This document shows, piece after piece, positions 9,217 through 24,440 of a stretch of 64,000 bases of DNA (positions within the stretch are counted from its first letter, which is position 1; the number at the start of each line of letters is the position of its first letter). The notes under the pieces are model-generated. The model was not told where the DNA came from, searched no databases, and saw only the letters and a list, made by a program, of their open reading frames with translations. The stretch comes from a phage: the NCBI GenBank assembly GCA_012646185.1, contig GCA_012646185.1_4706.1; one strand, 5' to 3'. Both the position numbers and the translations under genes were made by a program.

Positions 9217-9449
9217 TACTGCGCTCCCTCCAACGCATTACTACCTACGGGTTCTTTGGTTTCCAGACGGCTGTTTAAGCGCGCAGCAACCGCATCTTCC
9301 AATCCCAACGGCATAACCTTTTTGTTCACGTCAGGATCGGCGGCATCATTACCAACGGTTTGACGTACGACCTCAGCAACCAACGTTACCGCGTTCGTCA
9401 GCGCAACAAAGCTCGCTGCCCGAGCCGTGTTAAGTTGTTCTTGGTTCAT
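9216..9449 (-). CDS. small hypothetical protein
   Basis: 77-aa ORF whose stop overlaps the start of the 507-aa gene by 1 nt. Confidence 0.4.
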   Translation of the reverse strand: MNQEQLNTARAASFVALTNAVTLVAEVVRQTVGNDAADPDVNKKVMPLGLEDAVAARLNSRLETKEPVGSNALEGAQ

Positions 9450-9480
9450 TCACTTTTCCTTTTAATGTCAGAGCATCGCA

Positions 9481-9500
9481 TTCTTGACGTACGTCAAGAA
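9481..9500. promoter_or_regulatory. perfect 20-bp palindrome TTCTTGACGTACGTCAAGAA, candidate operator
   Basis: Read directly; a related half-site TACGTCAAGAAGG occurs at 6218-6230, also upstream of a minus-strand gene. Confidence 0.4.
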
Positions 9501-9524
9501 GGTACTGCGTTCAGCGAAATAAAC

Positions 9525-9550
9525 GAGCAGGGGCATGAAGCCCCCTGCTC
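9525..9550 (-). terminator. intrinsic terminator hairpin
   Basis: 9-bp stem gagcagggg/cccctgctc immediately after the stop of the 9551..13897 gene, followed by a U-rich tract on the minus strand. Confidence 0.5.
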
Positions 9551-12500
9551 TTATTTGGCGTCGTTAAAATAAATATCAACAGCTCGTTCCGTTGCGTAGA
9601 GGAGACCAAGATTCACAGTCCCAACCACTTCCGGTGAACCGATGATACGGTTAGCGATACTGGTGCCACTGAAGATAGCATCAAGGGTGTGCCCGTCTTC
9701 GGTTTTGTTCACACCATGACCCACGGAAGAGACAACGGATTTCGCTTGAGCTGCGAAGGTACCTTTATCACCCATCCCCGCACCAAGGTCGTAACGCATG
9801 AAAATACGGATAGCGATCTGGTTCTCGCCTAACGGATTACCGTCTATTCTCACGTTACTGTTATTGATACGCCCCGTAGTTGCTTCGTTGAGTTTCAGTT
9901 CCTTAACGCGTTTAGCTCGTGCTTTATCTGCCTCACCGACGAGCGCTGCCATGGTTTCACTCATATCCTCAATCTGAGCGCGGTACAGTACATCGATCTG
10001 TACAACTTCACCATGAACGTCAGCACGTGGGTTATACTGACTCATACGACGTAATGCTTCAACGGCTTCCTGACTCTCATCACTCAGATCGGTCGCAATC
10101 GGTTCTTCCAGTGTTGCAAGGATCGTTCGTGGTTCAACATGATCGCCGATTTTCACGAGACCACGAATGTTGAGATGGGCGTCAACGATGAGCGTACGGC
10201 TCTTAATCGATGGTGTTACGAGACGATCAGCAAGATTGTCGAAGATATACGAACTGTCCTCGTGAGTCTCTGGAATATCCAGAATACCGACAAGAGACAG
10301 AACACCTGCGCGCCAAACAACCTGACCTGGGTTCCACCAATCGCGTTTAAAATAAAGACGATGGAAAACCACCACATCCTGATCCTTAACGCGATCCCCG
10401 ACTTTATAATCGGTAATGAGATCGTGAGGATAATACTTACCTGGTCCTTTCCCGATTATCGTACCGAGCTGGAAAACCTCTTCCCCTAACTCTGGATCGT
10501 CGTATTGTATCGTAAGCGCAGTTTTGGTGACCTTCTTAACAACACCATCGCCTTGGGCAGCTGCTGCAAAGAGCTTACCAACACGATGCGCGATGACAGT
10601 CTCACCGCCTGTGCGCCATGGTTGTACATCGTAACCTTCAGCAGCAATCATGCGGTTGTGTTGGATCCCGACGAAGACCAGACGTTTTCCATCATCACGG
10701 TCTACAGCCGGAACAGCTAACGCTGACGTACTCATTACCGATGAGATGCCGTCTGTCTTTTCATCGAATGGTCGTGTTTCACCATACACCGACACGATAT
10801 TAGCATTAGGTGCAAGGTAAGCAGAGATACCCACATCCCCACTATCTTTCGTACCCTCTGACACAATACCAACATCGGACTTGTCGTATTCACGATCGCG
10901 TGCGCGTCGAAGCGATGTCTTTGAACGACCCCCGATACCGGTCATCGTTGCTTCTTCACCCTGCTTGATATCCAGCATCGGGTTGGTTTCATCGATCACG
11001 ATGGACGCGCTGTCGTCGAGAATTTGGTTCCAGACGCTTACCGGACTGATTGAGATTTTCTGACGATTTCCTTGACTGCTGTTCTCATTCTGACGAATAG
11101 CGCCAACCAGATCCTTATACACCAATTCAGCGAACTTATCGTACGTTTTAAAACGTTGATAGTTCACATCGTTGGTGTTAGGTGCCCAGTCATCCAGAAG
11201 CAGTTCAACAGCACGCAGTAACAACATGGCGAAATCGGTAGGTTCTCCCATGTTCTGTAGCAACGTACGGCTTACCGGATCAACGAAAAGACGCTCCATG
11301 AGTTCAAGTTCGCGTAAATGACGAACCTTAAGTCCGGCACCATCGACAACGTTAAAATAGATATCTCGATTGTCGAAAGCACCGCGAGCGTAACCGATGT
11401 AGTTACGGTACTCGTTAAATCCGCCCAGCAACAACGTCGTCATGCGATCGTCTTTACTGAAGATCAAACTTTCGTCATCAAAGCTCACCGCGAATTCATC
11501 GGGCGCTAGACCCATACGAGAACCGCGAGGTACCGTACGATAGTTCGCTTTAAGATGTTCTAATAACGGGGTAAGTCCACCCAGATAACTTAGAACAACA
11601 CCAACCGGAATACGTACACCCATGAATTCAAGATCGGCGGCTTCGATCGGCATCTTAGCCGCATTGATACCGAAGAAATCGGGGAACGTCCCTACAGGTG
11701 TTGGTGTTTGTCCTGACTGACAGATATAGAGCTGATTGCGTTTATCGATTGCTAAGAATTCACCCAGCGTGTTACGCGCAAACGTCAGGAGCCCTTCGGC
11801 TAACTGTTCGTTGAACCGATCTTCCCCGATGAACTCCGGCAATGTCTTTGTATCAAGACGTATATCCCAATCAGCAAATTGGATTTGGGTATAGTTGCGT
11901 GCAAGCACAGCGAAGTAATACGGGACTTTGACGGCCGGATCAAAGACGTTACCACGTTTTAACGTGGTTAAGGGCGAAGACTTATCGTAATACATCGCTG
12001 TAAGTTGGCGTGTTAGCCAACGACCGGCGTTATTAACGACACGCTCTGAACGTTTAACAAACACCTTACCGTAGGCGGTACTCAACGCAACTTCGGATGA
12101 TGATACCTTTCTAATAGGTTTATCAACACGTTGTTTACGCATCCGGTATTTGATGCCGTTAACAACATAAATGCCGTCCTTACGAACCTTCGGCAACATC
12201 ACCGGGAACGTGGTTGGGACACCGCCTACAGGAGCCAGTTTAATCGTGATGACTTGATAATCCCCCATCACGTCAACAACATCTTCAACTTTATATCCCG
12301 TGACAGGGTAACCTGCCTGTTGTACGGCAACAACAGCGGCTGCGATGTCCTTTTGCATCACGTGTTCAACGTAATGTTTATCCCACACCGCAAGCGTCGA
12401 TTTACATAGGCTCTTATCGACGATAACATCCGCTTCCGGCATAACCTTTGCTGGCGCTAATTTCGCGGCTTTTGGTTTAACTTCAACATACTCAGCAAGT

Positions 12501-13897
12501 GTTAATCCAGAACCGTCGGGTGCTTCGATTTCGTGAATGGCGTCAGCATTACGCATCGCTGCTTTATATTGGACGCCGCTTAACTGACCCGCATCAGCCA
12601 GATCGCTCGCGCGTACCAACACCGCATCCGATAACGACTGAATATATTCACCGTGTGTTTTCGGTAGCGTTGCTGCGTCAAAGACATCAACCTTTTCTTC
12701 TTCGGTATCGTCGGTAACGACTTCGAAGAGATCGTCGGTAATGTCCTGATCTTCATCGGGTTGGAAATCTGGTTGTACTTCTACCCCGGGTACTTCACGG
12801 ACATCTTCGAACGAGCGTTCTACAATGGCGTTCCACGCATCAGCGTCATCGTCTTCATCCGACCCGCCGACCAACTCCGCTTCTAACTCATCGGGATCAA
12901 GAACGGTAGCCAGATCCTCACCGTTAGGAAGCACGACGTCGCGATCATCATACTCCGCATCCGGGCTGTCTGCAAGAATATCTCGCTCTTGACGAAGAAC
13001 CTGTTCCTCTTCTTGTTTCTGTTCTTCTTCATTCGCACTCTGCGACCACAAACGTGTTACCGCCATCATCCAACGACGCTGGAAGGTTTCAAGTGTCGTT
13101 TTATCGAGTTCTTCCCCTTCCTTAACAAGCCCGGTACGCCATTCCTCCAGCAGGCCCAGATTCAGCGTAAAGAAGTACACACCGTCCGTAAATACAACGT
13201 TAAGCTTATCCAGCGTGGCTCTGTCTAACGAAGCCATCGTACTGTTCTCACGATCGGTTCCCAACCAGCGGAAGAAGTCAAAGAACGACAGCTCCTCCGG
13301 CGTAGCGAAATTCATGAGGTTGTTACGGGTCGGTGCCTGTTGCGTGGTACGCATCAACGAAATCTTCGGCAATGTTGACGGTATACGGAACAACAGAAAG
13401 TGTTGACGATCGCTTTGCTGTGCGATTTCGTTGGCTTTCGACCAAATTGTTTTACGTACGTTGAACCATTCATCATACCAACGGGTGAGCGTTGGACGAT
13501 AAATGTACATGTGGTTAAGATGCGCGTAGTTAGCCACGATCTGAGCGTTGATGTTTTTCTCCACCGTACTTAGATCAGTGACCAAACGAAAACGACGATG
13601 CGATGCACGGTAATCCAGTTTCGCACGCGGTAGCTGGAATCGCTGATCCCGTCGAGGTGCGCCTTGCTTGGTTGCAAGGTCATCCGCGAACGATATCCAA
13701 AGCTGGGCACTTTCTTTGCTCAGCATGTATTCGTTTTCTGGAGGACCTATCAATGATGGATCCGTTGCGGTGTAATGATAGACAGCATAACGCGGCAGCT
13801 GCAATAGCTGCACTAAACGTAATCTCGGTGACAATAGCTCTTGGTAGCGTCTGACACCGAACTGTCGGTAGTAATCAAGGTATTTAAGTTTTGCCAT
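9551..13897 (-). CDS. multisubunit RNA polymerase beta-prime-like subunit, C-terminal part
   Basis: 1448-aa ORF with ATG and GGAG RBS; contains a bridge-helix-like NNAGRWLTRQL (compare E. coli ANSGYLTRRL) and a possible trigger-loop-like TMTGIGG; follows the DFDGD exon. Highly diverged. Confidence 0.5.
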   Translation of the reverse strand: MAKLKYLDYYRQFGVRRYQELLSPRLRLVQLLQLPRYAVYHYTATDPSLIGPPENEYMLSKESAQLWISFADDLATKQGAPRRDQRFQLPRAKLDYRASHRRFRLVTDLSTVEKNINAQIVANYAHLNHMYIYRPTLTRWYDEWFNVRKTIWSKANEIAQQSDRQHFLLFRIPSTLPKISLMRTTQQAPTRNNLMNFATPEELSFFDFFRWLGTDRENSTMASLDRATLDKLNVVFTDGVYFFTLNLGLLEEWRTGLVKEGEELDKTTLETFQRRWMMAVTRLWSQSANEEEQKQEEEQVLRQERDILADSPDAEYDDRDVVLPNGEDLATVLDPDELEAELVGGSDEDDDADAWNAIVERSFEDVREVPGVEVQPDFQPDEDQDITDDLFEVVTDDTEEEKVDVFDAATLPKTHGEYIQSLSDAVLVRASDLADAGQLSGVQYKAAMRNADAIHEIEAPDGSGLTLAEYVEVKPKAAKLAPAKVMPEADVIVDKSLCKSTLAVWDKHYVEHVMQKDIAAAVVAVQQAGYPVTGYKVEDVVDVMGDYQVITIKLAPVGGVPTTFPVMLPKVRKDGIYVVNGIKYRMRKQRVDKPIRKVSSSEVALSTAYGKVFVKRSERVVNNAGRWLTRQLTAMYYDKSSPLTTLKRGNVFDPAVKVPYYFAVLARNYTQIQFADWDIRLDTKTLPEFIGEDRFNEQLAEGLLTFARNTLGEFLAIDKRNQLYICQSGQTPTPVGTFPDFFGINAAKMPIEAADLEFMGVRIPVGVVLSYLGGLTPLLEHLKANYRTVPRGSRMGLAPDEFAVSFDDESLIFSKDDRMTTLLLGGFNEYRNYIGYARGAFDNRDIYFNVVDGAGLKVRHLRELELMERLFVDPVSRTLLQNMGEPTDFAMLLLRAVELLLDDWAPNTNDVNYQRFKTYDKFAELVYKDLVGAIRQNENSSQGNRQKISISPVSVWNQILDDSASIVIDETNPMLDIKQGEEATMTGIGGRSKTSLRRARDREYDKSDVGIVSEGTKDSGDVGISAYLAPNANIVSVYGETRPFDEKTDGISSVMSTSALAVPAVDRDDGKRLVFVGIQHNRMIAAEGYDVQPWRTGGETVIAHRVGKLFAAAAQGDGVVKKVTKTALTIQYDDPELGEEVFQLGTIIGKGPGKYYPHDLITDYKVGDRVKDQDVVVFHRLYFKRDWWNPGQVVWRAGVLSLVGILDIPETHEDSSYIFDNLADRLVTPSIKSRTLIVDAHLNIRGLVKIGDHVEPRTILATLEEPIATDLSDESQEAVEALRRMSQYNPRADVHGEVVQIDVLYRAQIEDMSETMAALVGEADKARAKRVKELKLNEATTGRINNSNVRIDGNPLGENQIAIRIFMRYDLGAGMGDKGTFAAQAKSVVSSVGHGVNKTEDGHTLDAIFSGTSIANRIIGSPEVVGTVNLGLLYATERAVDIYFNDAK

Positions 13898-13900
13898 GGG

Positions 13901-14101
13901 TTAGGCTCCACGAGGTCCCGTTAAGTTGCGTAACAGGAACGCAACTGTATCGTAACCAATATCAATGTTGAATTTATTTTTACCGCTTACCCAGAAAGCA
14001 CGCTTCTTGTGTGAGTTGGTAATTTCGTCAATAGCTTCCATGGAATAAAGAACGTTAACCGAGACCGTATCACCGTCGAACCTTGTCTTCGCCTCAGGTC
14101 G
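13901..14101 (-). CDS. RNA polymerase beta-prime-like N-terminal subunit, exon 2 (catalytic DFDGD-type motif)
   Basis: Open frame encodes RPEAKTRFDGDTVSVNVLYSMEAIDEI...NIDIGYDTVAFLL, matching the beta-prime NADFDGDQMAVHVPLSLEA...QDVVLGLYY region; bounded upstream by in-frame UAG inside the intron core; stop UAA lies 2 codons before the ATG of the next gene. 5' boundary approximate. Confidence 0.6.
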   Translation of the reverse strand, partial: RPEAKTRFDGDTVSVNVLYSMEAIDEITNSHKKRAFWVSGKNKFNIDIGYDTVAFLLRNLTGPRGA

Positions 14102-16060
14102 CTACGCTGAGACCGCCTGCATGGATACGTACATCACAGGCTGCTTGCACTTTCATGCAAGAGGAGACTATATCAAACCGGCAGCGCAACCTGCTACGGT
14201 AACCTACACTTCGAAGACGCTCGTCCTCTACAGGGTGGTAAATCCCTTAGTCGTTGAACCTGCGTTGTTTCACATTCTTGTTTGTAAGAATGTCGTATTA
14301 CTACGCAACAACCAGGCTGCTGATTGCCCATTGTTTCGCACCTTAGCACCGCTTACGCGGCTTTTCTTTCAGCCTAAGCCTCTTACGGAGGTAGTGCATC
14401 TCAACTGTTGTTTCTGCCTTTCGGCACCTCATGGGTCGTTGAGCTTTAGGGGTTCCCAGCATTTCGTAGGTTTTTCAAGCACTCCCTTTCGGGAATACCG
14501 GACTCATTATTAGCTTATTTATTCAAGTATCTGAAATCCCACTTATCTTTACGTCGTTTATCGCACTTGATGTCAGGATGATTAACACGATGCCTAATAG
14601 TTGTTGCCGATAGCTGGCTGAGATTCTCAGCAGATCGTGCGCCAAGAACAACGAGTTTTGTGTCGTCTGGACGCGTAACTTCTACTGCCCGATAATGCTT
14701 ACGTAACACATCACGCCAATATTCACGACGTTCTGGTTCAGCATACTCAAGCATGTAACCGTTAACATCTACTAAACCGTAGCTTTCGTTTAATCGAGAG
14801 GTAGCGGCTGGTTTACTAATACCGATTGCTTTAGCCGCATCGACCACGGTTTTATACGGGGTCTCATTACCGTCTCTATCTACAACCACAATGAAATCTG
14901 GACGTGAATCGAGTAGCTGCTGTCTGCGTTCGACGGCTTGTTGATGAAGCACCATGTTAACGTGTTCGAACCCGTAACCTTCTGGACCGTGCCACCCTGG
15001 ATTGTTATTCGCTCGATAAAGTACCGTCGCAGATTTCACTCCAGTCTGACGTGACGCCTCGTTTGCACTATGAACAACCGTGGTAGAGCCGTCAGGGTGA
15101 TATATCCGTATCTGGTTCATTATACCGGAACCAATGAAGTTACCATCAGCTGATTTAATATCCGGCCATGGTTGAGGATCATCTTTGAATTTAACCACCC
15201 AGCGGTTATTAAACAGTTTGACTTTTCGAACATGTTTGCCCATTGTCGTATCCGTAACACCTGCGACTACTGATGCCTGTGTGATACTCAGGTACTCAGT
15301 AACGGTATCGTTCCATGTATCCCAAAGCAGAACCGGTTTATTGTCGTCGCGTAAACCGTATTCGATGGCGTGTAGAACGTTACGACTTCTGGTCGCCCAT
15401 TCAAGATTATCGAGAGAGTAATTCCATTTGTCGGCATCGAGATGATTAACGTCCAACTTATCGACATTAGCCGGATATTCCCGCCACGCCAACATCAAGC
15501 AGCGATGCAGAACCTTAGTTCTCGTTACATCCCGACAATCATGACGTAGACTAATGAATACGTAATTATCCTTTTTCGGATACGATCTACATTCCTGACC
15601 GTCTTTGCGGCGAATAACTCGTCCTTTCTCATTTATCAGATAACGGGTGTGTCCAGGAATGACACGATAACCAGGGTACTTAGCGATTTCGTAAGCAGGC
15701 TCGAACCGATAGGATAAATTATCAACATCCCAGTTAGATTCGTCACCATCAACAAACATCGCTTTGACGTACTTCTGTGTTTCAATATCAACCAGGATGT
15801 TTTTGTGTGCGATACAAATCAATGCTGGGATATTGAATTCACGACCGGCTAAGATAACCATGTCGCCATTTCTCGGTATCACGACGTGGGTATCACGATA
15901 CCGTAAATTTCCATAGCCGTCTATTTCAATCCAGCTTAGAAACGGAATGGATATAAACTCTTTTTCAGATACTCGCCATTTAAACATCTTAATACCTATT
16001 TAATACTAAACATCATATTAATAGGTTTAAAAGTTAAAAATGACAGAAAATGGCTAAATT
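14102..16060 (-). mobile_element. group I self-splicing intron carrying an HNH homing endonuclease gene
   Basis: Canonical P, Q, R, S core elements in correct order on the minus strand: P ~14366-14381 (GGCUGAAA), Q ~14312-14326 (AAUCAGCAGCC), R ~14244-14259 (GUUCAACGACUAAGGG), S ~14163-14176 (UUGAUAUAGUC); P4 and P7 pairings are complementary. 5' splice site not resolved. Confidence 0.7.
14515..15987 (-). CDS. HNH homing endonuclease (intron-encoded)
   Basis: 490-aa ORF with HNH-type motif DVNHLDADKWNYSLDNLEWATRSRNVLHA, a NUMOD4-like N-terminal segment and three helix-turn-helix-like repeats in the C-terminal half. Confidence 0.8.
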   Translation of the reverse strand: MFKWRVSEKEFISIPFLSWIEIDGYGNLRYRDTHVVIPRNGDMVILAGREFNIPALICIAHKNILVDIETQKYVKAMFVDGDESNWDVDNLSYRFEPAYEIAKYPGYRVIPGHTRYLINEKGRVIRRKDGQECRSYPKKDNYVFISLRHDCRDVTRTKVLHRCLMLAWREYPANVDKLDVNHLDADKWNYSLDNLEWATRSRNVLHAIEYGLRDDNKPVLLWDTWNDTVTEYLSITQASVVAGVTDTTMGKHVRKVKLFNNRWVVKFKDDPQPWPDIKSADGNFIGSGIMNQIRIYHPDGSTTVVHSANEASRQTGVKSATVLYRANNNPGWHGPEGYGFEHVNMVLHQQAVERRQQLLDSRPDFIVVVDRDGNETPYKTVVDAAKAIGISKPAATSRLNESYGLVDVNGYMLEYAEPERREYWRDVLRKHYRAVEVTRPDDTKLVVLGARSAENLSQLSATTIRHRVNHPDIKCDKRRKDKWDFRYLNK

Positions 16061-17529
16061 GAATCACCGCCTAAACCGGCGAGGTACGGGGCAGGAACAA
16101 TAGTAGTTTCTACGAATGATGCATTAGGTAACCAGTCGGGGTATTCCCATGCGATAAATCGTTCATCCGTTATTGGTTCCCAGTTACTATCCAGTTCGGT
16201 TTTCGGTTTTGCCGCAACGGTTGTACGTGCGTAACAGGTTAACGGGATAACGGATTGCATACCGGATACCGGATAACGTGTTACCATCGCAGCCAGGTTA
16301 TTCCAGTACTTATAACCAGCGATATAAATAAGCTCGGTGTAAGTAATGGGGTGAACATCCGCACCAGGCTTATTCAACATCTCCGGAGGTAATTCACTCA
16401 TACCACGGAATAACCGAAACGAATCATTGTTCACATAGACGAGGCAAAGATATCGTCCATTGACCATGATAGGCTCGTTACGCACGCCAGGATCGCTTAA
16501 GGTGTTCAGTAAACGTTCTATTCCGTCCCAGGTTGTAAAGTCATCGATGGTGTCTGGATCAAGCGTGACACGTTCACGTTCCATCGTTTCGGTATCAATA
16601 AGTTCAACTTCTGTAACGTCACGAACAAATATTTCCTGCAAAATACCGGTACGTAACGCATGTTGCGTTACTGGGAGAGCAGCTTTACTCATCTGGTATA
16701 ACCCTAACTGAACTGCGGTACAGGAAGGCTGGTTAGGCGACCCTAATACCTCCGTTGTGGGGTTAATTGCCGAAATAACGTTACGGGTTGAGTTCCAAAC
16801 GCGACGTGAACCAAACTTCCCTTGGAAGATCCCTTTCTTACCTTGGAACATATCCAACAACAAAGCGTAGATATCGTTAAACGTTCTCTGTAAGCTCCAG
16901 CGTTGGCCGTCGTAAACGGGATCGGAATAATCTTTTAATCCATCAGGGACGGTGTTAGAAATTGCAAGGAAACGACGATACAACTCCGTGATTTCTTGCT
17001 CGCTTTCATACCCACCTTCTTTTACTTCTATTTCACGTAAACCCGCAGGTAAAACCAGTAGATGACGAGTCATCGCTTTGAACATGTTCTCTTCGACGAC
17101 TTTAATTCGTAGCTCTCGTTGAGCTGAACCCGTTGAAACGAACTTAATATCAGCGACGTGTTGTGCAAAGAACCCGTACCCTGTCTGTCCTGTTAACGCA
17201 TCAGACGCAACGAAGTCGCGTTGTTCAGGATCCCAACGCGCGTACGCCTTCCCCGACATGATATCGCCATAGAGGTGTTTTAGTCGAATGAGACGATCGT
17301 AGATGACAGGATGTAGGATTTCAACCTTGCATTCAATCACCGCAAATCGACGGTCTCGATCTTCACTACCCGCACTACCAAAGATGGTGTATGAATAGAA
17401 ACCGTCATCGTGGAAATTACCGGTGCTTGGATCACGAATGCTCATGCTCGTGATCTTGGGGAGAAAACGTAACTGCTGTTTATCGAGGTGTAAAATACTA
17501 ATATTAAACGGCTCTCTGACTTTAGCCAT
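16054..17529 (-). CDS. RNA polymerase beta-prime-like N-terminal subunit, exon 1
   Basis: Start ATG at 17529 with AGAGGAG RBS (ORF-track start 17571 is an upstream extension). N-terminus FNISILHL...DGFYSYTIFGS aligns with beta-prime FDAIKIAL...DGLFCARIFGP; KGIFQGKFGSRRVWNSTRNVISAINP aligns with the [26 protein letters not shown] region. Frame stops at 16054 inside the presumed intron, so the true 3' end of exon 1 is uncertain. Confidence 0.6.
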   Translation of the reverse strand: MAKVREPFNISILHLDKQQLRFLPKITSMSIRDPSTGNFHDDGFYSYTIFGSAGSEDRDRRFAVIECKVEILHPVIYDRLIRLKHLYGDIMSGKAYARWDPEQRDFVASDALTGQTGYGFFAQHVADIKFVSTGSAQRELRIKVVEENMFKAMTRHLLVLPAGLREIEVKEGGYESEQEITELYRRFLAISNTVPDGLKDYSDPVYDGQRWSLQRTFNDIYALLLDMFQGKKGIFQGKFGSRRVWNSTRNVISAINPTTEVLGSPNQPSCTAVQLGLYQMSKAALPVTQHALRTGILQEIFVRDVTEVELIDTETMERERVTLDPDTIDDFTTWDGIERLLNTLSDPGVRNEPIMVNGRYLCLVYVNNDSFRLFRGMSELPPEMLNKPGADVHPITYTELIYIAGYKYWNNLAAMVTRYPVSGMQSVIPLTCYARTTVAAKPKTELDSNWEPITDERFIAWEYPDWLPNASFVETTIVPAPYLAGLGGDSI

Positions 17530-17774
17530 GGAGACACTCCTCTTTACCACCACCGGCTGCGGCGGTATCATCTGAACACACGAGAGACGTAATGGGTGAT
17601 GGCGTCACCCATCGCTTCCTTGCTTGAGGCGAGGAAGTTACTAGGTTACGTACCTGCCTGATTTTATCAGGTGGGCGATGTGTGAAGTTATGCTTCAACA
17701 TTATCAATGCCGAAGGTAAACTTCGTGCATCACGTTCCAACGTAACATGGGAACGTATCGAACTGGAGGTATAC

Positions 17775-20700
17775 ATGGTAGATAAAACCCGTGTTGAGGG
17801 TGATGATAATTGGGACAACTGGGATGAAGACTTCTCCCTGGATCTCGATTTTAACGAACCCAAAGACGATCGTAAACCGATAACACGCTTTGCGATAGGA
17901 GCGGTTAAAGGTGCTGCTGAAGATCTTACTTCCTACGAAAGAATGAGGGAGATCGCCAGAAACGCATTGCCTAAGGGCTACAGCGACGGTATGGATCTTA
18001 TCGATTCCGCCGTCGGATCCACGAAGGAACTATACAATGAAGCCGTTCGTGACGTTCTTCCTAAGGTCCAAAGCTCAAAACGGTTAGCCGCACAACTGAC
18101 CAAGAAATACCGTGCGAGCATGCCCGATTTCTCGAAGAAAATTCTTGAGCAATGGGAGCAAGAAGCCAAGGAAGAAGACGAACGTAAAAAAGCTGAAGAA
18201 ACCCTTCGTCAACGCATGGCGAGCGCAGGGGACGATGAGATCGCCCGCAAGGTTGCCGAGGCATTAGGCGAATCAGCAAACCAAAGCGCGGATCAGTTCG
18301 CTGAACAGCAAGCGAAAGAGAGTATCCGTGACGATATCGCTGACAAACGGTACGCTGTAACCAACAAACAAATGAGTGCGATGCAAGAAGGCGTCGCCAA
18401 GATGGTTGGTTTCAACAATGAATTCGCTGCGCGCTACATGCGTAAAAGCCTGGAACTGAAATATCGTTCCTTAGCGATTCAGCGTGCAAGTTTCGACCAG
18501 CATAAAAAGTTAGCCGAAGTCTATATCGGTTTATTACAAAACATCCAGAAGAATACGGCTTTACCTGATGCGGCTAAAGCGAAGATGTCGGAAGAATTCC
18601 GTCGTAGTGCATACCAACGTTTCTTTGGTAATGCGTTAGATGCGATGGGTTCTTTCGAGAACCGTTTCTTTGCCGATGTTAAGAAGAACCTCGCCACCAA
18701 CGCATTAGGTGCTTTAAAAGGCGTCGTGTCTGGCGCAAACGATGCGTTATACGGTTTAAACGAAGCACGTGACTCGATGTCCATGATGGACGGGATGGGG
18801 TCAGAAGGCGATATTAAGGAAATGCAAGGAAAGATGTTGGGTCAACTTATCGGCTCAACTGTCGTACCATGGATGGCTGATAAAGGCAGGATGGCGTTAC
18901 GCGATTTAGCAAAACGTCACCCCAATGCTAAATTCGCTAGCGCGTTAAAAGCCGTGGATCAAGGTGGTGAGGCTGCCGCTTACACGACGCGTAATCTCGG
19001 TAAACTGCTCCAGGAAGATATTCGTAAAAACGAATTCAATCTTAGCGATCCGTTTTACAAGCAATTGTTACGCGGTGCAGGGCGTTGGGCTTTCAACATG
19101 GATAGCGGACGTAACTTCCGCGTGATGAACGACACCGCTGAAACACTGGCGGAGCAAACGTCTTTCGACGGTTTAACCTACCGCAGCATCAACGAAGTTA
19201 TTCCAGGCTTTCTTGCACGCATTCTGAAAAGCAGTGAAGGTATCCGCACCGGAAACAGCGATCCTGATTACGAGGTCTATGACGGCATCAGCGGGCAATT
19301 CGTGTCTCAGCGCACGCGTGAACAAAGCGTCAATGACACGCTGTTTAACAAACGTACATTTGGTTATTACGCCAGCCGTTTCAACGAGGTTATCTCGGTC
19401 ATCGATCCCGATAAACAATTATCGGAAAAAGCCAGGAAGGCACTGGCTAAACAGTTGGCACGAGATAGCGACGCGAACATCGCATTCGACCCGGCTCGTT
19501 TTACGGATGAAAGCAACTTCGATCGTAGCATTGACCGTGACGCTATTAAGGAACTTTCCACGTACTTTCGTGACCGTTACGGTATTCGTGATGATGTCAA
19601 CGATAAGGGCGAACGTCATCAGGTCATTGGAAACCGCGGGCAATATTACACGGAACGTAACCGAGCCGACCTTCGCTACGGTAATTTGAAATCGTTACAA
19701 CCGGATATCCAGCGTAACCTTAACCTACTGAAACGTACTGGTGACGTCCAATATCTGGAACGTATTGGTATTGTAACGAGAAATAGCGACGGAAGTTACT
19801 CGGTTAATCACGATAGGTATTTCTCTGAAATCGATCGGTACATCGACCGACCGGAGTACGCTGAACGTAGTGATGTTAATACGCGATTAACCGCTCAGGA
19901 AACAAGAGCGCTGGCGTTGGGTTATCGTGACGCAAAACCATCAGTTGATGACGTCCAAAATGCGGGTCTGCCGAACATCGATCGTAAGGCTGTTGGAACA
20001 GTAACCGTTGATGAAAACATCGGCTACGATAAATGGTGGAACGACACAGGTGTTATCACCACATCGCTTGAAGAACAGAATCGAGCATGGCAAGAGCTTT
20101 ATCTCGAAGCGTTATCTGAAGCATCCGAACAACGTGTTGAGATGCTTGCGTTGCTGAAAGCCATTTCTGAGAAAGACTGGTCTAATAACGTTTCGCTGGA
20201 TGGTGAAGACGTGCCTGAAGGCGCAGCACCTATTTCATTTATTGATCGTGCCAAACAAAAACTTGGCGGACGCAACCTCTTTAAAGGTGGCCGTAATCTC
20301 CTCTGGAAAGGAATTAAAAATACCGCACGTTTAGGTGTTAAAGGCGCGCGCTGGGGTGCAGAACGCACGTTGGGTAGTTTGGTAAATTCCGGCCGACGCA
20401 TTATCAACTTCAACCGCTTCGTGTTCGGTGCGTTATCCAAGGTCGATCAGGTTCCGTTTGACATTTACGTTAAAGGGGAATCCCAACCACGCATACTGGC
20501 TGCCAAACTTCGTCAGGGGTTATACTTCGACGAGGCGACAGGAAAAGCCGTCAAACGGATGAAGGATATCAAAGGCCCACTCGTTGATGCAGATGGAAAC
20601 ATCGTAATCAGCAACGAGGATATCGAGAAAGGGTTGGTCACTCGCGCCGGTCGTGCCTTTGAGAATTCAGGACTTAAAGCATGGGCGCGTGAAGGTCTTA

Positions 20701-23700
20701 ATGGAATCACGACGGTATTAAGTCTCCCACGGATGTTAAAACGCGGTGCGGTCGAGATCTACAAGCAGCTTGACAAAACACCCGACGTTTACGTCAAGGG
20801 AGAATCAACGCCTCGTCTGTTGTCCATGGTGTTAGCAGCGGGTGGGTATTTCCGTCGCTCGGATGGACAAGTCATCAAAAATCTTGAAGACATCGATGGT
20901 GATGTTGTTGATGCACAAGGTAACGTCGTACTTACGCTTGCCGACATGCAGAAAGGACTTGTCGATAAATACGGTAAAGCGATTCGTCGCTTAAAAGAAA
21001 AGCTCATCAACTTCGGTGTGAAAGCTTTCACGTTACCGTTAACGCTGCTACGTAAGACAAAGGACATCCTTAAAGCCCTTCCAGGTAAAACCGTTAACGG
21101 TCTACGACGGATGGGATTAAATGTCCAATCACCCGACGCATTACTGGTGGGAACAACGTCGAGCATGGTAGATCGGCTCGATGCGATTTACCAGCTTCTT
21201 GACCAGCGTATGCCGGGTGGTGATAAGGATTATCGCGATTGGAATGGGGATGGCGTTCGAGAAGGATCGTTGGAAGACCTGAAACGTAAGCGTGAAGCCA
21301 AGGAAAACGGTAAGGATGACACCGGCAAAGATTCCAATAAAGGAGAAGAAAAGGAGAAGAAACGAGGATTACTCGGAAGCCTTTTCGATATGCTTGGCGA
21401 TACCGCATTAGGTAAACGACTCATGGCGAGTCCGCTTGGAAAAATTCTAGGCGGTCTTGGGGCGGTGTTAAGCGGCGGAGCATCGTTAACCGGATTGTTG
21501 GGCAAGGGTCTCATTAGTGGAACCGGCGCGCTAGTCAAGGGAGGACTAAGTGCGGCAGGATGGTTAGGACGTGGTGCGTTAATGGCGGGTGGGGCTGCAT
21601 TGAACGCCGTTGGTGGGTTATCGGGATTAGGTGCATTCCTCATCTCACCTGTTGGGCTTGCTATCGCTGGCGGTGCATTGGCTGCTTATGCTGGATGGAA
21701 GATCTATCAGCATTTCGCCGAGAAGCCTGACCCGATGCAGAAGCTCCGTCTTATTGCATACGGTGCAAAAGGGGACGATAAAGACTTCAATAAGAAGCTG
21801 CTTGCGACAGAAACATACCTCACCGACCATGTGGTTATGACCGGGGATACCATCGGATTCGATCCGAAAGCCGACTCGGAAAAGATTCTCGAAATCTGGG
21901 AATTGTCCCTGGAAGATTCCGACCGAATGAACGAATGGAAACGCTGGTATCTGCATCGTTTTATTCCTGTTTTCGCTCGTGCGTACAAACTCTGGAAAGA
22001 GCATATGCCGGACGAGAAGAAATACATGGAAATGGATAAATATCCGAACGGTGAGAACAAAGTGAAATGGTCGGAAGCGTTTATCTGGCCTTCCGATAGT
22101 CCTGACGGTCCGTATTACGTCGAAGCTAACCCGTTGGGTTCTTCTGGTGCGACGCGTTATATTGCTGGTCAAGACGTCAAAACCTTGATGCTGAAACAAC
22201 TCGAAGCCATCAAGAAAGAGTACCAGAATCAGATCAAACAATACTCTCATGATGAGGCTATTGCTGATTGGTCACGGATGTCTGACACACAGCGTAAATC
22301 CGTTGCGCCTAACGCATTACGTGGTCAGAAAGCGTCGTTACGTTTTAACGATAAACGTTACAACAGCGCTGGTGCTAAAGGACGACAGAAACTGGATGCA
22401 ACCGCGGTTATTGAAAGCGTAGACCGCCGTGGTAGAAAATGGGTTGCCGGTGGATACATCGATGAACTCACCAGTCTCCGTGTTCGCGCGTACGGTATCA
22501 AGGTTCCGTTGTTAAGCCAGATAAAAGTGCTGATGGAACTTGAAGACGCTGTAGAACCTGGCGTTGTCGCTGAAGGTAAAGGTGTTAAATACGGTGGCGA
22601 TCTTGTCGCGCTCTACAAGAAATTCGCGACGAAGTTCGGAAGAGACGTTAACAGCAAGCATGATCAGGATATCTGGTTTGCTTGGATGAACAACCGTTTC
22701 CTGCCCGTCTTTTTAACCTATTACCAACAAGTTAGCGAAATGGGCGGTCAAGGACTTCTGTCCGACGTGGTACAGAACCTGAAAGACAGCCAACGCTGGG
22801 AAATCGGTGAAGCACTTGTCGCAACACAATACCGTGATGAGAAAGGTACACTGCAGCCTGTATGGTCCTGGAATAGTTGTGGTTTCTCCGGTACTGAAGC
22901 TAACACCACCAGCAGTTCAACAAAGAGCCAACTCGATCTGTTAAAAGAATATGCGGATAAAGAGAAGGTTCGTGAGAAGAACGCGGAAGCATCGCAAGAG
23001 GATACCGATAAATTATCGAAGATCCAAGAGCTGATGATGAAGCAGGCTGGGTACGAGAAGAAGGACGGTGTCTGGCAGAAGAAATCTCGCATTACCGGCG
23101 GGATGAGTAACTCCGAAGCGAATTACAACCCCAATAGGAATAAGGTCGGTGAAAGCAGCTTTACGGCTTCGGCTACTTCCAATGCGGGATTGGGATCAAC
23201 CGGCGATCTTACTGGATTGCCTAACATGGGCTTACAGAAACCGGCAATGGGACCAGGTCCTGAAGCTGGACGTCGTGCGCTTGTTAAATCCGCTGTAAAA
23301 CGCGGCATTACCGATCCAATGGAAATGGCGATGTTCCTTGCGAACATCGAACATGAATCGGGGAACTACACTCACGTACGTGAGGGGAACTACAAGACGC
23401 CAGAGCGTCTTAAACAGGTCTTCCCTTACAAATTCCGTGATGTGCAGGATGCCGCACAGACGATCAGCATGGGGCCGGAAGCGGTATTCGAACGTGTGTA
23501 TGGTAATCGTAAAGATCTCGGAAACACACAGAAAGGAGACGGGGCGAAGTATTTAGGACGCGGCTTCATTCAGGTTACCGGTAAAGCTAACTACGCTCGT
23601 CTGTCTAAGACCTTGAATAAGGATCTTGTCAGCGATCCGACCTACCTGGAAACGCCGGAAGGTGCGGCGGAAGGTAGTGTTGCATGGTGGCTCAACCGAG

Positions 23701-24440
23701 GTAACGTATTACGCGATCCCGCAAAACGGGGTGACGTACGCCAAGTTCGTTATCTGGTTAACGGTGGGTTTAACGGATTACGTGATGTTGAACAACGTTC
23801 AGCTTATTGGATTCAGGCGGCTAAGAATGGCACCCTGAAGAAAATGATGGACGAGTTATCAGGGTCAACATCAGACGATCAAGCTGAAGGACCAACCACT
23901 GCCGAACAGGTGAAGAACGAAGCAGCACAAGAGGCAAACGGAACACCTGCTGTAAGCAACGATCCGCAAGCCCCAGCATCTTCTACTACCCCTGAAGCTA
24001 AACCGTCTGCGGCTGCCGGGACGGCCCCAGCACCTGGAGAAGCATCACCAACGCCCGGAAGTTTCGAAACAGCAAAAGCCGCGGCAGGACAACCGACATC
24101 AACTCCAGCACCTAGCGATTTGCCGTCAAACCCGGGTGCAAATCGAGGGATATCGGTTCCGAATACACCTGCACAGGTTGCGCAGTCTGCGACACAAACG
24201 TCGGCTGCAAGTGAGAACTTCTACGGTAGCGCAGGTGAAATTCTCCGACAGCAGCTGACCACGCAGCAGAACATCGAGAAGAACACCGGTAGAACGAATG
24301 AACTTATTTCGGAATTAATCCAAGCCGTTAAGGGTTCTTCTATCGGTAAGGGTTCTGCAAGTCCTTCTCAACAACAGGCGATGTCGCTACCTAATCGTCC
24401 GCAAGGAATCTCTCCAACACGGACAAGGTACGCACAGTAG
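17775..24440 (+). CDS. giant virion protein (~2221 aa) with embedded lysozyme-like peptidoglycan hydrolase domain
   Basis: Start ATG at 17775 with GGAGG RBS (track start 17682 is GTG). Glycine-rich hydrophobic segment; GH19-like motifs FLANIEHESG and YLGRGFIQVTGKANY; Pro/Ala/Ser/Thr-rich C-terminus. Confidence 0.7.
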   Translation: MVDKTRVEGDDNWDNWDEDFSLDLDFNEPKDDRKPITRFAIGAVKGAAEDLTSYERMREIARNALPKGYSDGMDLIDSAVGSTKELYNEAVRDVLPKVQSSKRLAAQLTKKYRASMPDFSKKILEQWEQEAKEEDERKKAEETLRQRMASAGDDEIARKVAEALGESANQSADQFAEQQAKESIRDDIADKRYAVTNKQMSAMQEGVAKMVGFNNEFAARYMRKSLELKYRSLAIQRASFDQHKKLAEVYIGLLQNIQKNTALPDAAKAKMSEEFRRSAYQRFFGNALDAMGSFENRFFADVKKNLATNALGALKGVVSGANDALYGLNEARDSMSMMDGMGSEGDIKEMQGKMLGQLIGSTVVPWMADKGRMALRDLAKRHPNAKFASALKAVDQGGEAAAYTTRNLGKLLQEDIRKNEFNLSDPFYKQLLRGAGRWAFNMDSGRNFRVMNDTAETLAEQTSFDGLTYRSINEVIPGFLARILKSSEGIRTGNSDPDYEVYDGISGQFVSQRTREQSVNDTLFNKRTFGYYASRFNEVISVIDPDKQLSEKARKALAKQLARDSDANIAFDPARFTDESNFDRSIDRDAIKELSTYFRDRYGIRDDVNDKGERHQVIGNRGQYYTERNRADLRYGNLKSLQPDIQRNLNLLKRTGDVQYLERIGIVTRNSDGSYSVNHDRYFSEIDRYIDRPEYAERSDVNTRLTAQETRALALGYRDAKPSVDDVQNAGLPNIDRKAVGTVTVDENIGYDKWWNDTGVITTSLEEQNRAWQELYLEALSEASEQRVEMLALLKAISEKDWSNNVSLDGEDVPEGAAPISFIDRAKQKLGGRNLFKGGRNLLWKGIKNTARLGVKGARWGAERTLGSLVNSGRRIINFNRFVFGALSKVDQVPFDIYVKGESQPRILAAKLRQGLYFDEATGKAVKRMKDIKGPLVDADGNIVISNEDIEKGLVTRAGRAFENSGLKAWAREGLNGITTVLSLPRMLKRGAVEIYKQLDKTPDVYVKGESTPRLLSMVLAAGGYFRRSDGQVIKNLEDIDGDVVDAQGNVVLTLADMQKGLVDKYGKAIRRLKEKLINFGVKAFTLPLTLLRKTKDILKALPGKTVNGLRRMGLNVQSPDALLVGTTSSMVDRLDAIYQLLDQRMPGGDKDYRDWNGDGVREGSLEDLKRKREAKENGKDDTGKDSNKGEEKEKKRGLLGSLFDMLGDTALGKRLMASPLGKILGGLGAVLSGGASLTGLLGKGLISGTGALVKGGLSAAGWLGRGALMAGGAALNAVGGLSGLGAFLISPVGLAIAGGALAAYAGWKIYQHFAEKPDPMQKLRLIAYGAKGDDKDFNKKLLATETYLTDHVVMTGDTIGFDPKADSEKILEIWELSLEDSDRMNEWKRWYLHRFIPVFARAYKLWKEHMPDEKKYMEMDKYPNGENKVKWSEAFIWPSDSPDGPYYVEANPLGSSGATRYIAGQDVKTLMLKQLEAIKKEYQNQIKQYSHDEAIADWSRMSDTQRKSVAPNALRGQKASLRFNDKRYNSAGAKGRQKLDATAVIESVDRRGRKWVAGGYIDELTSLRVRAYGIKVPLLSQIKVLMELEDAVEPGVVAEGKGVKYGGDLVALYKKFATKFGRDVNSKHDQDIWFAWMNNRFLPVFLTYYQQVSEMGGQGLLSDVVQNLKDSQRWEIGEALVATQYRDEKGTLQPVWSWNSCGFSGTEANTTSSSTKSQLDLLKEYADKEKVREKNAEASQEDTDKLSKIQELMMKQAGYEKKDGVWQKKSRITGGMSNSEANYNPNRNKVGESSFTASATSNAGLGSTGDLTGLPNMGLQKPAMGPGPEAGRRALVKSAVKRGITDPMEMAMFLANIEHESGNYTHVREGNYKTPERLKQVFPYKFRDVQDAAQTISMGPEAVFERVYGNRKDLGNTQKGDGAKYLGRGFIQVTGKANYARLSKTLNKDLVSDPTYLETPEGAAEGSVAWWLNRGNVLRDPAKRGDVRQVRYLVNGGFNGLRDVEQRSAYWIQAAKNGTLKKMMDELSGSTSDDQAEGPTTAEQVKNEAAQEANGTPAVSNDPQAPASSTTPEAKPSAAAGTAPAPGEASPTPGSFETAKAAAGQPTSTPAPSDLPSNPGANRGISVPNTPAQVAQSATQTSAASENFYGSAGEILRQQLTTQQNIEKNTGRTNELISELIQAVKGSSIGKGSASPSQQQAMSLPNRPQGISPTRTRYAQ

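Follow-up and report, generated by a model that had tools for sequence, protein, structure and literature searches.

How does a phage obtain a complete RNA polymerase catalytic centre from a gene whose reading frame breaks off within the metal-binding motif? This question is raised by positions 13,901 to 17,529 of a 64,000-nucleotide stretch of phage DNA (GenBank assembly GCA_012646185.1, contig GCA_012646185.1_4706.1), hereafter referred to as the window. The DNA is from a Goslar-like nucleus-forming jumbo coliphage (chimallivirus), and its positions 13000-18000 are 91.4% identical to Escherichia phage Goslar over 5 kb. An earlier reading of the letters, here called the original prediction, had proposed an RNA polymerase beta-prime gene that is interrupted by a group I intron with an HNH endonuclease gene; the exon 1 open reading frame (ORF), the HNH gene, the intron core and the downstream frame all lie where it had placed them. 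Our analysis indicates that the gene is interrupted by a mobile group I intron of 1982 nucleotides (nt), which is inserted between the first catalytic Asp codon and the remainder of the DFDGD Mg2+-binding motif, and that this intron very probably splices. The three parts of the gene are listed below; a slash within a sequence or a pair of positions marks a splice boundary.

16063..17529, minus strand: exon 1, virion RNA polymerase beta-prime N-terminal subunit gene (phiKZ gp180 homolog), assigned by the ORF, phrog_2986 and a profile search of PDB
14081..16062, minus strand: complete group I intron, 1982 nt, delimited by alignment to intronless homologs and alleles and by the Rfam core
13901..14080, minus strand: exon 2, 59 codons plus stop, FDGDTVSVNVLYSMEAIDEITNSHKKRAFWVSGKNKFNIDIGYDTVAFLLRNLTGPRGA, corresponding to phrog_2986 positions 485-538

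The exon 1 frame likely starts with the ATG at 17529, which is preceded by the Shine-Dalgarno sequence AAGAGGAG and is also the annotated start in Goslar, and it terminates at 16054 with ...PAPYLAGLGGDSI before the stop codon. Exon 1 itself comprises 489 codons and ends with GGC GGT GAT (G-G-D), whereby the last D is the first Asp of DFDGD; its frame stops two codons into the intron (TAG 16056-16054). The downstream frame reads RPEAKTRFDGDTVSVNVLYSMEA..., within it ...TRFDGDTVSVNVLYSMEA..., and stops at 13901. When compared with phrog_2986 (539 positions), exon 1 corresponds to profile positions 3-484 (E 3.4e-161) and the downstream peptide to positions 485-538 (E 1e-10). As these matches are exactly contiguous (484 to 485), the exon 1 ORF and the downstream peptide are adjacent parts of one protein. 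We found 630 homologs of the beta-prime N-terminal subunit, and in an alignment of 40 homologs the residues D489, D491, G492 and D493 are invariant. Here, D489 is the last codon of exon 1, and D491 and D493 are encoded by exon 2. The 40-homolog profile matched only RNA polymerase beta-prime chains in PDB, with the AR9 nvRNAP beta-prime subunit as the best match (7S01_d, E 1e-14), in line with the claim that ORF 16054..17529 is the N-terminal part of a beta-prime subunit whose frame stops ahead of the catalytic motif. Moreover, the conceptual spliced protein aligns to cellular beta-prime across the junction, as residues 474-520 correspond to segment 438-484 of the B. subtilis subunit (6WVJ_D). 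By these profile and structure matches, the interrupted gene is identified as that of the virion RNA polymerase beta-prime N-terminal subunit of the phiKZ gp180 family. For phiKZ gp180 itself, packaging into the virion and transcription of early genes are known (PMC10612078).

The DFDGD motif is complete only after splicing. Translation of the unspliced RNA would yield a protein of 491 amino acids (aa) that ends with ...GGDSI and lacks two of the three aspartates. The exon 2 frame contains an in-frame TAG at 14104-14102, which is followed by no ATG, GTG or TTG ahead of FDGD; the first start codon, at 14041, lies past the motif. The FDGD motif therefore cannot be produced as a separate polypeptide; its independent translation is what the original prediction had named as speaking against it. 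The peptide quoted there for the downstream frame does contain the catalytic segment; its first seven residues, RPEAKTR, are translated from the intron, and exon 2 starts at F (14080). Likewise, FDGD is found downstream as proposed for a DFDGD segment, while the first Asp of that segment is the last codon of exon 1. An intein was considered as the interrupting element and rejected, because the exon 1 frame stops two codons in, the endonuclease ORF has its own start codon and an RNA core is present.

The splice sites, which the original prediction had left open, could be fixed at 16063/16062 (5′) and 14081/14080 (3′) by an intronless allele and a database protein. The allele is found on L008, a 237.5-kb Goslar-like viral contig, in which the gene is uninterrupted, shares 94.3% DNA identity with the joined exons of the window and encodes the same junction residues. 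The database protein is P0001, which has 548 aa and represents a cluster of 235 member sequences; it agrees with the spliced product predicted here in all but one residue (547 of 548). The DNA at the junction reads GGC GGT GAT/intron/TTC GAC GGT GAT, with U16063 as the last base of exon 1, G14081 as the last base of the intron and TTC (F) at 14080 as the first codon of exon 2. A shift by 1 nt is the only other boundary pair that would give the identical mRNA; it was rejected, since the intron would then end in U instead of G, contrary to the terminal-G rule. Intronless homologs are colinear over the region and read ...GL[GD][GA]DFDGDT..., as exemplified by an Erwinia phage (...YLSGLDGDFDGDTAS...), KTN4, a member of species phiKZ (...LAPLGADFDGDTVS...), and PhiPA3 gp212 (...LAPLTADFDGDTVS...). 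Because these proteins read through, the window must join ...YLAGLGGD to FDGDTVS.... The ligated exons are accordingly predicted to read ...GGCGGTGAT/TTCGACGGTGAT... in the RNA and to encode the junction-spanning peptide ...LAGLGGDFDGDTVSV... within a product of 548 aa (...LAGLGGD/FDGDTVS...); its counterparts from intronless phiKZ-like phages and from PhiPA3 have 550 aa. These comparisons with intronless sequences establish the intron boundaries and the restoration of the reading frame.

Within the interruption, the Rfam model RF00028 (gathering score 50 bits) matches 14530..14144 on the minus strand with 56.3 bits (E 1.3e-11) over its full length (model positions 1-253), with the P, Q, R and S elements in canonical order as originally proposed. 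This is the sole Rfam match in the window. The RNA elements are as follows.

16060..16065, minus strand: P1, 5′ strand, formed by exon GAU and intron UCA, from cofolding with the segment upstream of P2
16053..16057, minus strand: P1 extension, 5′ strand UUAGC, which pairs with GCUAA at 14514..14510
14500..14514, minus strand: P1, 3′ strand, with GCUAA, UGA and, directly 5′ of P2, the internal guide sequence GUC(C) (14503-14500)
14478..14499, minus strand: P2 hairpin, GGUAUUCCC-GAAA-GGGAGUGCU, from the minimum free energy (MFE) fold and conserved in Goslar and in the Goslar-like allele L010
14144..14530, minus strand: catalytic core P3-P9, from RF00028, the MFE fold and covariation, with P3 at 14472/14207, P4 (P element) at 14461, Q at 14325, R/P7 at 14260, P7.1 at 14247-14232, P7.2 at 14228-14213, P8 at 14200-14177, S/P7′ at 14174 and P9 at 14161-14144
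14081..14141, minus strand: 3′ peripheral hairpins P9.1 (14141-14115) and P9.2 (14113-14091) and the tail GAAGACAAGG ending with G14081, from the MFE fold

The unconstrained MFE fold of the 3′ 455 nt comprises P2-P9, P9.1 and P9.2, with large P5 and P6 extensions, the latter including a three-way junction. Subgroup IA is marked by a pair of hairpins between P7 and P3′; P7.1 and P7.2 occupy this position, and the intron appears to be of the subgroup-IA type. The segment comprising P9.1, P9.2 and the tail is identical in Goslar. In P8, we observed a difference between the relatives: Goslar and L010 carry approximately 49 extra nt with two small hairpins (GCUGAAGAAUACUUCAGC and UCUCGAUAUGAUCGAGA) in the loop at window position 14190 (between 14191 and 14189), whereas P8 of the window is plain.

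P1 is formed by GAU/UCA and UGA/GUC, with a U.G wobble (U16063.G14503) at the splice site, and this architecture is common to the window, Goslar, phiKZ and L010. GUCC stands directly 5′ of P2 in the same four introns, and a GUCC motif is found at the 5′ end of the introns of the contigs L012-L014. The P1 extension differs in sequence while the pairing is kept, as GGAAAGGCUA pairs with UAGCUUUUCU in Goslar and CCUUGAAAAA with UUUUUCAAGG in L010. In particular, the first ~20 nt of the intron and ~15 nt past the endonuclease stop codon are both replaced between the window and Goslar, and they still pair. In L010, whose intron lacks an ORF, the P1 position is occupied by a simple hairpin capped by an 8-nt loop. 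We rejected a local guide sequence a short way downstream of the 5′ splice site, GUCAUU (~16043), which would put the ORF between P1 and P2: Goslar has GGCAAA there, so this candidate is not conserved, whereas all relatives share the P2-adjacent GUCC and covariation is seen in the P1 extension. The first helix of the Rfam alignment (14530-14500) was likewise discarded, as it overlaps the end of the ORF and contains non-canonical pairs; we assign this segment to the 3′ strand of P1 and, after it, to P2.

Covariation was assessed with seven introns located at the same exact site, namely those of the window, Goslar, L010, phiKZ, L012, L013 and L014. Like the window, the six others score above the RF00028 threshold (Goslar 67.7, phiKZ 92.2, L010 64.9, L012 75, L013 68.8 and L014 81.8 bits). 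All seven are preceded by GAT and followed by TTY GAY, and in seven of seven a U precedes the 5′ splice site and G is the last base of the intron. Pairs were counted in P3, P4, P5, P6, P7, P7.1 and P7.2; P9 was left out, as it is misaligned in the divergent introns. In this set 96.2% of the cells are paired, compared with 34-52% when the partners are slid by 1-3 columns, and both sides change in 17 of 34 pairs versus 2-7 in the slid controls. The changes in P7.1 and P7.2 are compensatory throughout, and P7 does not vary. Judged by this alignment, the conservation of the fold and its covariation support a group I intron.

The intron contains the gene of a putative homing endonuclease, the start of which lies in a stable RNA structure.

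14515..15987, minus strand: HNH homing endonuclease gene, 490 aa plus stop, assigned by Pfam HNH_3, PHROG HNH families and I-HmuI
15975..16045, minus strand: long hairpin over the ribosome-binding region and AUG of the endonuclease gene (MFE -18 kcal/mol, z = -4.0)

Since the strands of P1 flank the ORF, the P1 loop comprises the entire endonuclease gene together with its leader, which puts the gene 5′ of the catalytic core. The original prediction had placed both the gene and the core between the exons, where they are indeed found; the gene is, however, within the intron and not beside it. Pfam HNH_3 matches the 490-aa ORF with 34.4 bits (cutoff 24.8), as do PHROG HNH endonuclease families, and the best solved relative is the intron-encoded nickase I-HmuI (1U3E; E 3e-3, a weak match), to which the catalytic motif DVNHLDADKWNYSLDNLEWAT (vnHlDadkwNysldNLewat) is aligned. 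The assignment as an HNH endonuclease thus holds. A second, weak stretch aligns with the C-terminus of I-HmuI. TIGR01453 scores 20.7 bits, below its cutoff of 56. The ORF is intact, with 490 aa in both the window and Goslar, which are 86% identical with a ratio of nonsynonymous to synonymous substitution rates (dN/dS) of 0.14 overall; as judged from this comparison, the ORF is under purifying selection. A mosaic segment covers the HNH domain (aa 114-250, window 15650..15240), where identity to Goslar drops to 68% and synonymous sites are saturated, versus 92-96% in the flanks, which suggests recombination with a more distant endonuclease allele. The similarity to phiKZ gp179 amounts to 32% identity over 46% of the window ORF. 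Structures analogous to the hairpin of the window are found upstream of the start codons of the Goslar gene and phiKZ gp179. In T4, translation of intron endonucleases is restrained by such structure, and by analogy the hairpin probably restrains translation of the endonuclease in the window.

Among the Goslar-like alleles, we observed three states of the locus: intronless (L008), with a 510-nt intron that lacks an ORF (L010) and with an ORF-containing intron (window and Goslar). L011 represents a second intronless allele with the same junction sequence as L008. The exons of four Goslar-like alleles (L008, L010, window and Goslar) are 94-96% identical at the DNA level, differing by ~5%, and 99.5-99.8% identical at the protein level over the whole spliced gene including exon 2. 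Similarly, within species phiKZ the reference strain has the intron, while KTN4 is without it and has an identical empty site (GCGGAT/TTCGACGGGGAC). Such presence or absence among near-identical phages is a signature of mobility, as produced by active homing.

The region is colinear in 246 of 281 phage records. Within the best 120 homolog clusters, 11 are truncated at ~490 aa, ten of which end with ...GL[GDNS]AD and a few unrelated residues; three of these ten were checked, and all three have an intron at the site. L012, L013 and L014, metagenomic chimallivirus contigs, carry ORF-less introns of 375-401 nt at the identical site. Its occurrence in phiKZ, the Goslar-like phages and several metagenomic lineages marks the D/FDGD insertion site, which lies in the virion polymerase's catalytic centre, as a hotspot of recurrent homing. 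Besides Goslar, a blastn search with the intron core returned no more than short patches, located in Proteus phage 7, Salmonella phage SaP7, Vibrio phage pir03 and a Staphylococcus phage; phiKZ was not among the matches. E. coli complete genomes gave no match. Two of the metagenomic contigs contain an extra ORF between exon 2 and the beta gene (L012 5558-6877, 439 aa; L014 5705-6832, 375 aa), which has no Pfam match.

Several observations weigh against an active, splicing intron of this kind. The case for splicing in this phage is built from its sequence, and direct evidence is thin even for the phiKZ type case, since a long-read transcriptome study reported that, under the conditions used there, none of the reads of the phiKZ introns were spliced (PMC10914365). 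In the window and Goslar, the exon contributes only 3 bp (GAU/GUC) to P1, and P10 would comprise at most 2 bp with exon 2 in any of these introns, so that the definition of the splice sites leans on the intron-internal P1 and the terminal G. With regard to accessory DNA-binding modules (NUMOD or helix-turn-helix) of the endonuclease, NUMOD1 scores 15.1 bits, below its cutoff of 22.8. In addition, both intronless Goslar-like alleles read GAC/TTT GAT at the site, compared with GAT/TTC GAY in the intron-bearing ones, and may not be cleavable targets. Over the wider site (window 14066..14071 and 16063..16068), L008 and L011 have GGGGAC/TTTGAT (GGTGGGGACTTTGATGGTGAT) instead of GGTGAT/TTCGAC (GGCGGTGATTTCGACGGTGAT, the ligated-exon form), with further synonymous changes nearby. 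P1 depends on the T that precedes the splice site. These differences of the intronless alleles may reflect co-conversion, drift or target-site resistance.

The lack of spliced reads and the short exon-guide pairing would also fit a decayed, non-splicing relic, with a truncated beta-prime subunit made from exon 1 and exon 2 either dead or supplying nothing. We regard this as very improbable: exon 2 holds two of the three invariant catalytic Asp residues, and the spliced gene retains 99.5-99.8% protein identity among alleles that are ~5% apart in DNA. Moreover, the window and Goslar have diverged in the endonuclease ORF but share a nearly identical intron core, the fold is kept by covariation across seven introns, and phiKZ gp180 has been described as a DFDGD-bearing protein that assembles into the virion polymerase (PMC10612078). 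In chimallivirus polymerases, the N- and C-terminal parts are already separate subunits, and the Goslar record presents exon 1 as a stand-alone coding sequence (CDS), both of which would agree with a further natural split of beta-prime in which the FDGD segment is a small polypeptide of its own and the HNH gene is free-standing. Such a split is hardly credible, given that no in-frame start codon lies between the TAG at 14104-14102 and FDGD and the first one, at 14041, is past the motif. It would also divide the Asp triad between two chains, and it is at odds with the full group I core exactly between the pieces, with the ORF-less introns of relatives at the same spot and with the colinearity of the intronless alleles.

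It is further conceivable, though unlikely, that the intron splices and that its endonuclease is no longer a homing enzyme, being either inactive or engaged in interference during co-infection or in assisting splicing. PhiPA3 gp210, a related intron HNH enzyme, nicks phiKZ and thereby confers an advantage in competition (PMC11620839), the site is recoded in those Goslar-like alleles that are intronless, and the mosaic segment (68% identity, flanks 92-96%) lies over the HNH domain. The HNH motif is nevertheless intact, the ORF is under purifying selection, and presence/absence polymorphism is the product of active homing. As this alternative concerns only the function of the ORF, it is compatible with the splicing intron that we favour. 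By analogy with PhiPA3, the endonuclease might serve as a weapon between co-infecting Goslar-like coliphages that damages the catalytic codons of a rival's intronless polymerase gene, the synonymous cluster of the intronless alleles being evolved resistance, not drift or co-conversion, and D/FDGD a recurrent battleground; we put this forward tentatively and consider it doubtful. Of the best 120 homolog clusters, 10 are truncated exactly at D/FDGD.

If the intron splices as we propose, the following course of events may be envisaged. The operon would be transcribed on the minus strand and the intron would fold, with P1 forming between GAU/UCA and UGA-GUC 5′ of P2 and looping out ~1.5 kb with the endonuclease gene. 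An exogenous guanosine would then attack after U16063, the terminal G14081 would occupy the G-binding site in P7, and the exons would be ligated to GGT GAT/TTC GAC, giving rise to the 548-aa subunit with an intact DFDGD motif. The HNH enzyme would be translated from the P1 loop, probably held down by the hairpin that buries its ribosome-binding site and AUG, and would presumably nick or cut the intronless allele of a co-infecting relative, whereupon recombinational repair would copy the intron into the recipient (homing).

The surroundings of the gene correspond to the order gp181, gp180, gp179, gp178 of phiKZ, with the gp181-like giant lysin/tail protein gene divergent and the gp178-like beta gene downstream.

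9551..13897, minus strand: virion RNA polymerase beta-like subunit gene, 1448 aa, phiKZ gp178 homolog, assigned by phrog_3148 (E = 0) and synteny

This gene starts four bases past the stop codon of exon 2, is uninterrupted in the window and is syntenic with phiKZ, KTN4 and PhiPA3. It is directly followed, at 9525..9550, by a strong bidirectional terminator-like hairpin (9 bp, seven of them G-C) that matches the annotated terminator of Goslar. Divergent from the polymerase operon lies an ORF of 2252 aa (17682..24440, plus strand) with a lysozyme/chitinase-like C-terminal region; its Goslar homolog is annotated as 'putative chitinase / tail fiber protein' (COG3179), and its counterpart is phiKZ gp181. 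An ORF of 130 aa opposite the intron core (14121..14513, plus strand) is most likely spurious.

Other introns were seen in polymerase genes of related phages. L010 (IMGVR_UViG_3300045988_173921) contains a second ORF-less group I intron (9366-9732, Rfam 54 bits) in the beta-subunit gene directly after ...AADRDD, which is the insertion site of the PhiPA3 gp210 intron; the equivalent position of the window, near residue 1069 of ORF 9551..13897, reads ...AVDRDDGKRLVF... without interruption. In the SPN3US-like phages Proteus phage 7 (MT679221, 1572-4532) and Salmonella phage SaP7, another polymerase gene, annotated as 'alpha subunit', is interrupted by a group I intron (51.9 bits) that contains an HNH-like ORF. 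This intron is inserted at ...MANG/DFDGDQ..., one codon upstream of the equivalent site, and its P3-P5 region is 78-80% identical to the intron of the window over 69 nt. In Vibrio phage pir03 (MT811961, 82895-82946), a 52-nt match (83%) to R/P7.1 is located at the edge of a gene annotated as 'RNA polymerase beta prime subunit' and may represent another intron in a polymerase gene.

Taken together, these findings leave the current picture of phage introns unchanged. Useful outcomes are the joined CDS in its exact form, the assignment of the endonuclease gene to the P1 loop, the recurrence of D/FDGD insertions across chimalliviruses and a coliphage allele series. A joined CDS of 548 aa in which DFDGD is intact should replace the 502-aa fragment in the annotation of the Goslar-type gene, and this bears on proteomics, structural work and core-gene counts of nucleus-forming phages. 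Moreover, three intron states in near-identical exons, together with a second intron at the PhiPA3 gp210 site, provide convenient material for studies of homing and competition in the tractable host E. coli.

Among known systems, the intron resembles that of the SPO1 DNA polymerase gene, which encodes I-HmuI, and the T4 td, nrdB and nrdD introns, as all are phage group I introns in genes of essential nucleic-acid enzymes at catalytic-site codons, the known ones being of subgroup IA, to which the intron of the window appears to belong as well; it differs from them in its host gene and in the location of the endonuclease ORF in the P1 loop. A further known system is the PhiPA3 gp210 intron, which likewise is a group I intron with an HNH endonuclease at conserved Asp codons of a chimallivirus virion RNA polymerase gene; its enzyme has been reported to be a nickase directed at a co-infecting phage's intronless allele (Birkholz et al. 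2024, Science; PMC11620839). In contrast to the window, whose beta gene is uninterrupted, the PhiPA3 intron resides in the beta-subunit gene (gp178 homolog), after DD at the position of phiKZ gp178 D1072.

Goslar (NC_048170 / MK327938), of all sequenced phages the closest one, carries the same element at the same insertion site, with an ORF of the same length of 490 aa, which is listed as the hypothetical protein gp206. It differs in the intron's 5′ end and the P1 extension, in the extra P8 element of 49 nt and in the divergent HNH segment (aa 114-250). Both its GenBank and RefSeq records already carry the non-coding RNA feature 'Intron_gpI' over the core; however, the exons are unjoined, the exon 1 CDS (502 aa) runs 13 codons into the intron, and exon 2 (59 codons) is unannotated. 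In the record NC_048170 (7084-8592 and 4899-5144), both polymerase genes are labelled 'beta subunit', although the interrupted one is beta-prime.

The original prediction had invoked introns in the RNA polymerase genes of a Bacillus jumbo phage. The class does have precedent, for which the orthologous phiKZ gp180/gp179 and PhiPA3 gp210 (PMC11620839) are more apt. According to PMC11512511 and PMC10914365, the phiKZ intron goes back to predictions of Mesyanzhinov 2002 and Ceyssens 2014; in the literature, gp179 is taken to be a homing endonuclease encoded by an intron, and gp180 to contain an intron (PMC11512511, PMC12676376). In phiKZ, the gp180 CDS stops with ...APLGAD/TAA, the group I core scores 92.2 bits, and exon 2 starts with TTCGACGGGGAC. 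The two elements differ in that phiKZ infects a host of another genus and is of another lineage, the identity of the window protein to phiKZ-like phages being only ~37% over its C-terminal 152 residues, and in that the similarity of the cores is below blastn detection. Moreover, the phiKZ intron is only 1443 nt long, is without large P5/P6 extensions and encodes a gp179 of 357 aa, compared with 490 aa in the window. Yet both interrupt the same gene at the identical site (GAT/TTC, D/FDGD), and in both an HNH_3 endonuclease gene lies in the P1 loop, the guide GUCC stands just 5′ of P2 and a hairpin precedes the endonuclease start. The element of the window is the ortholog of the known phiKZ intron, already flagged as 'Intron_gpI' in the records of Goslar.

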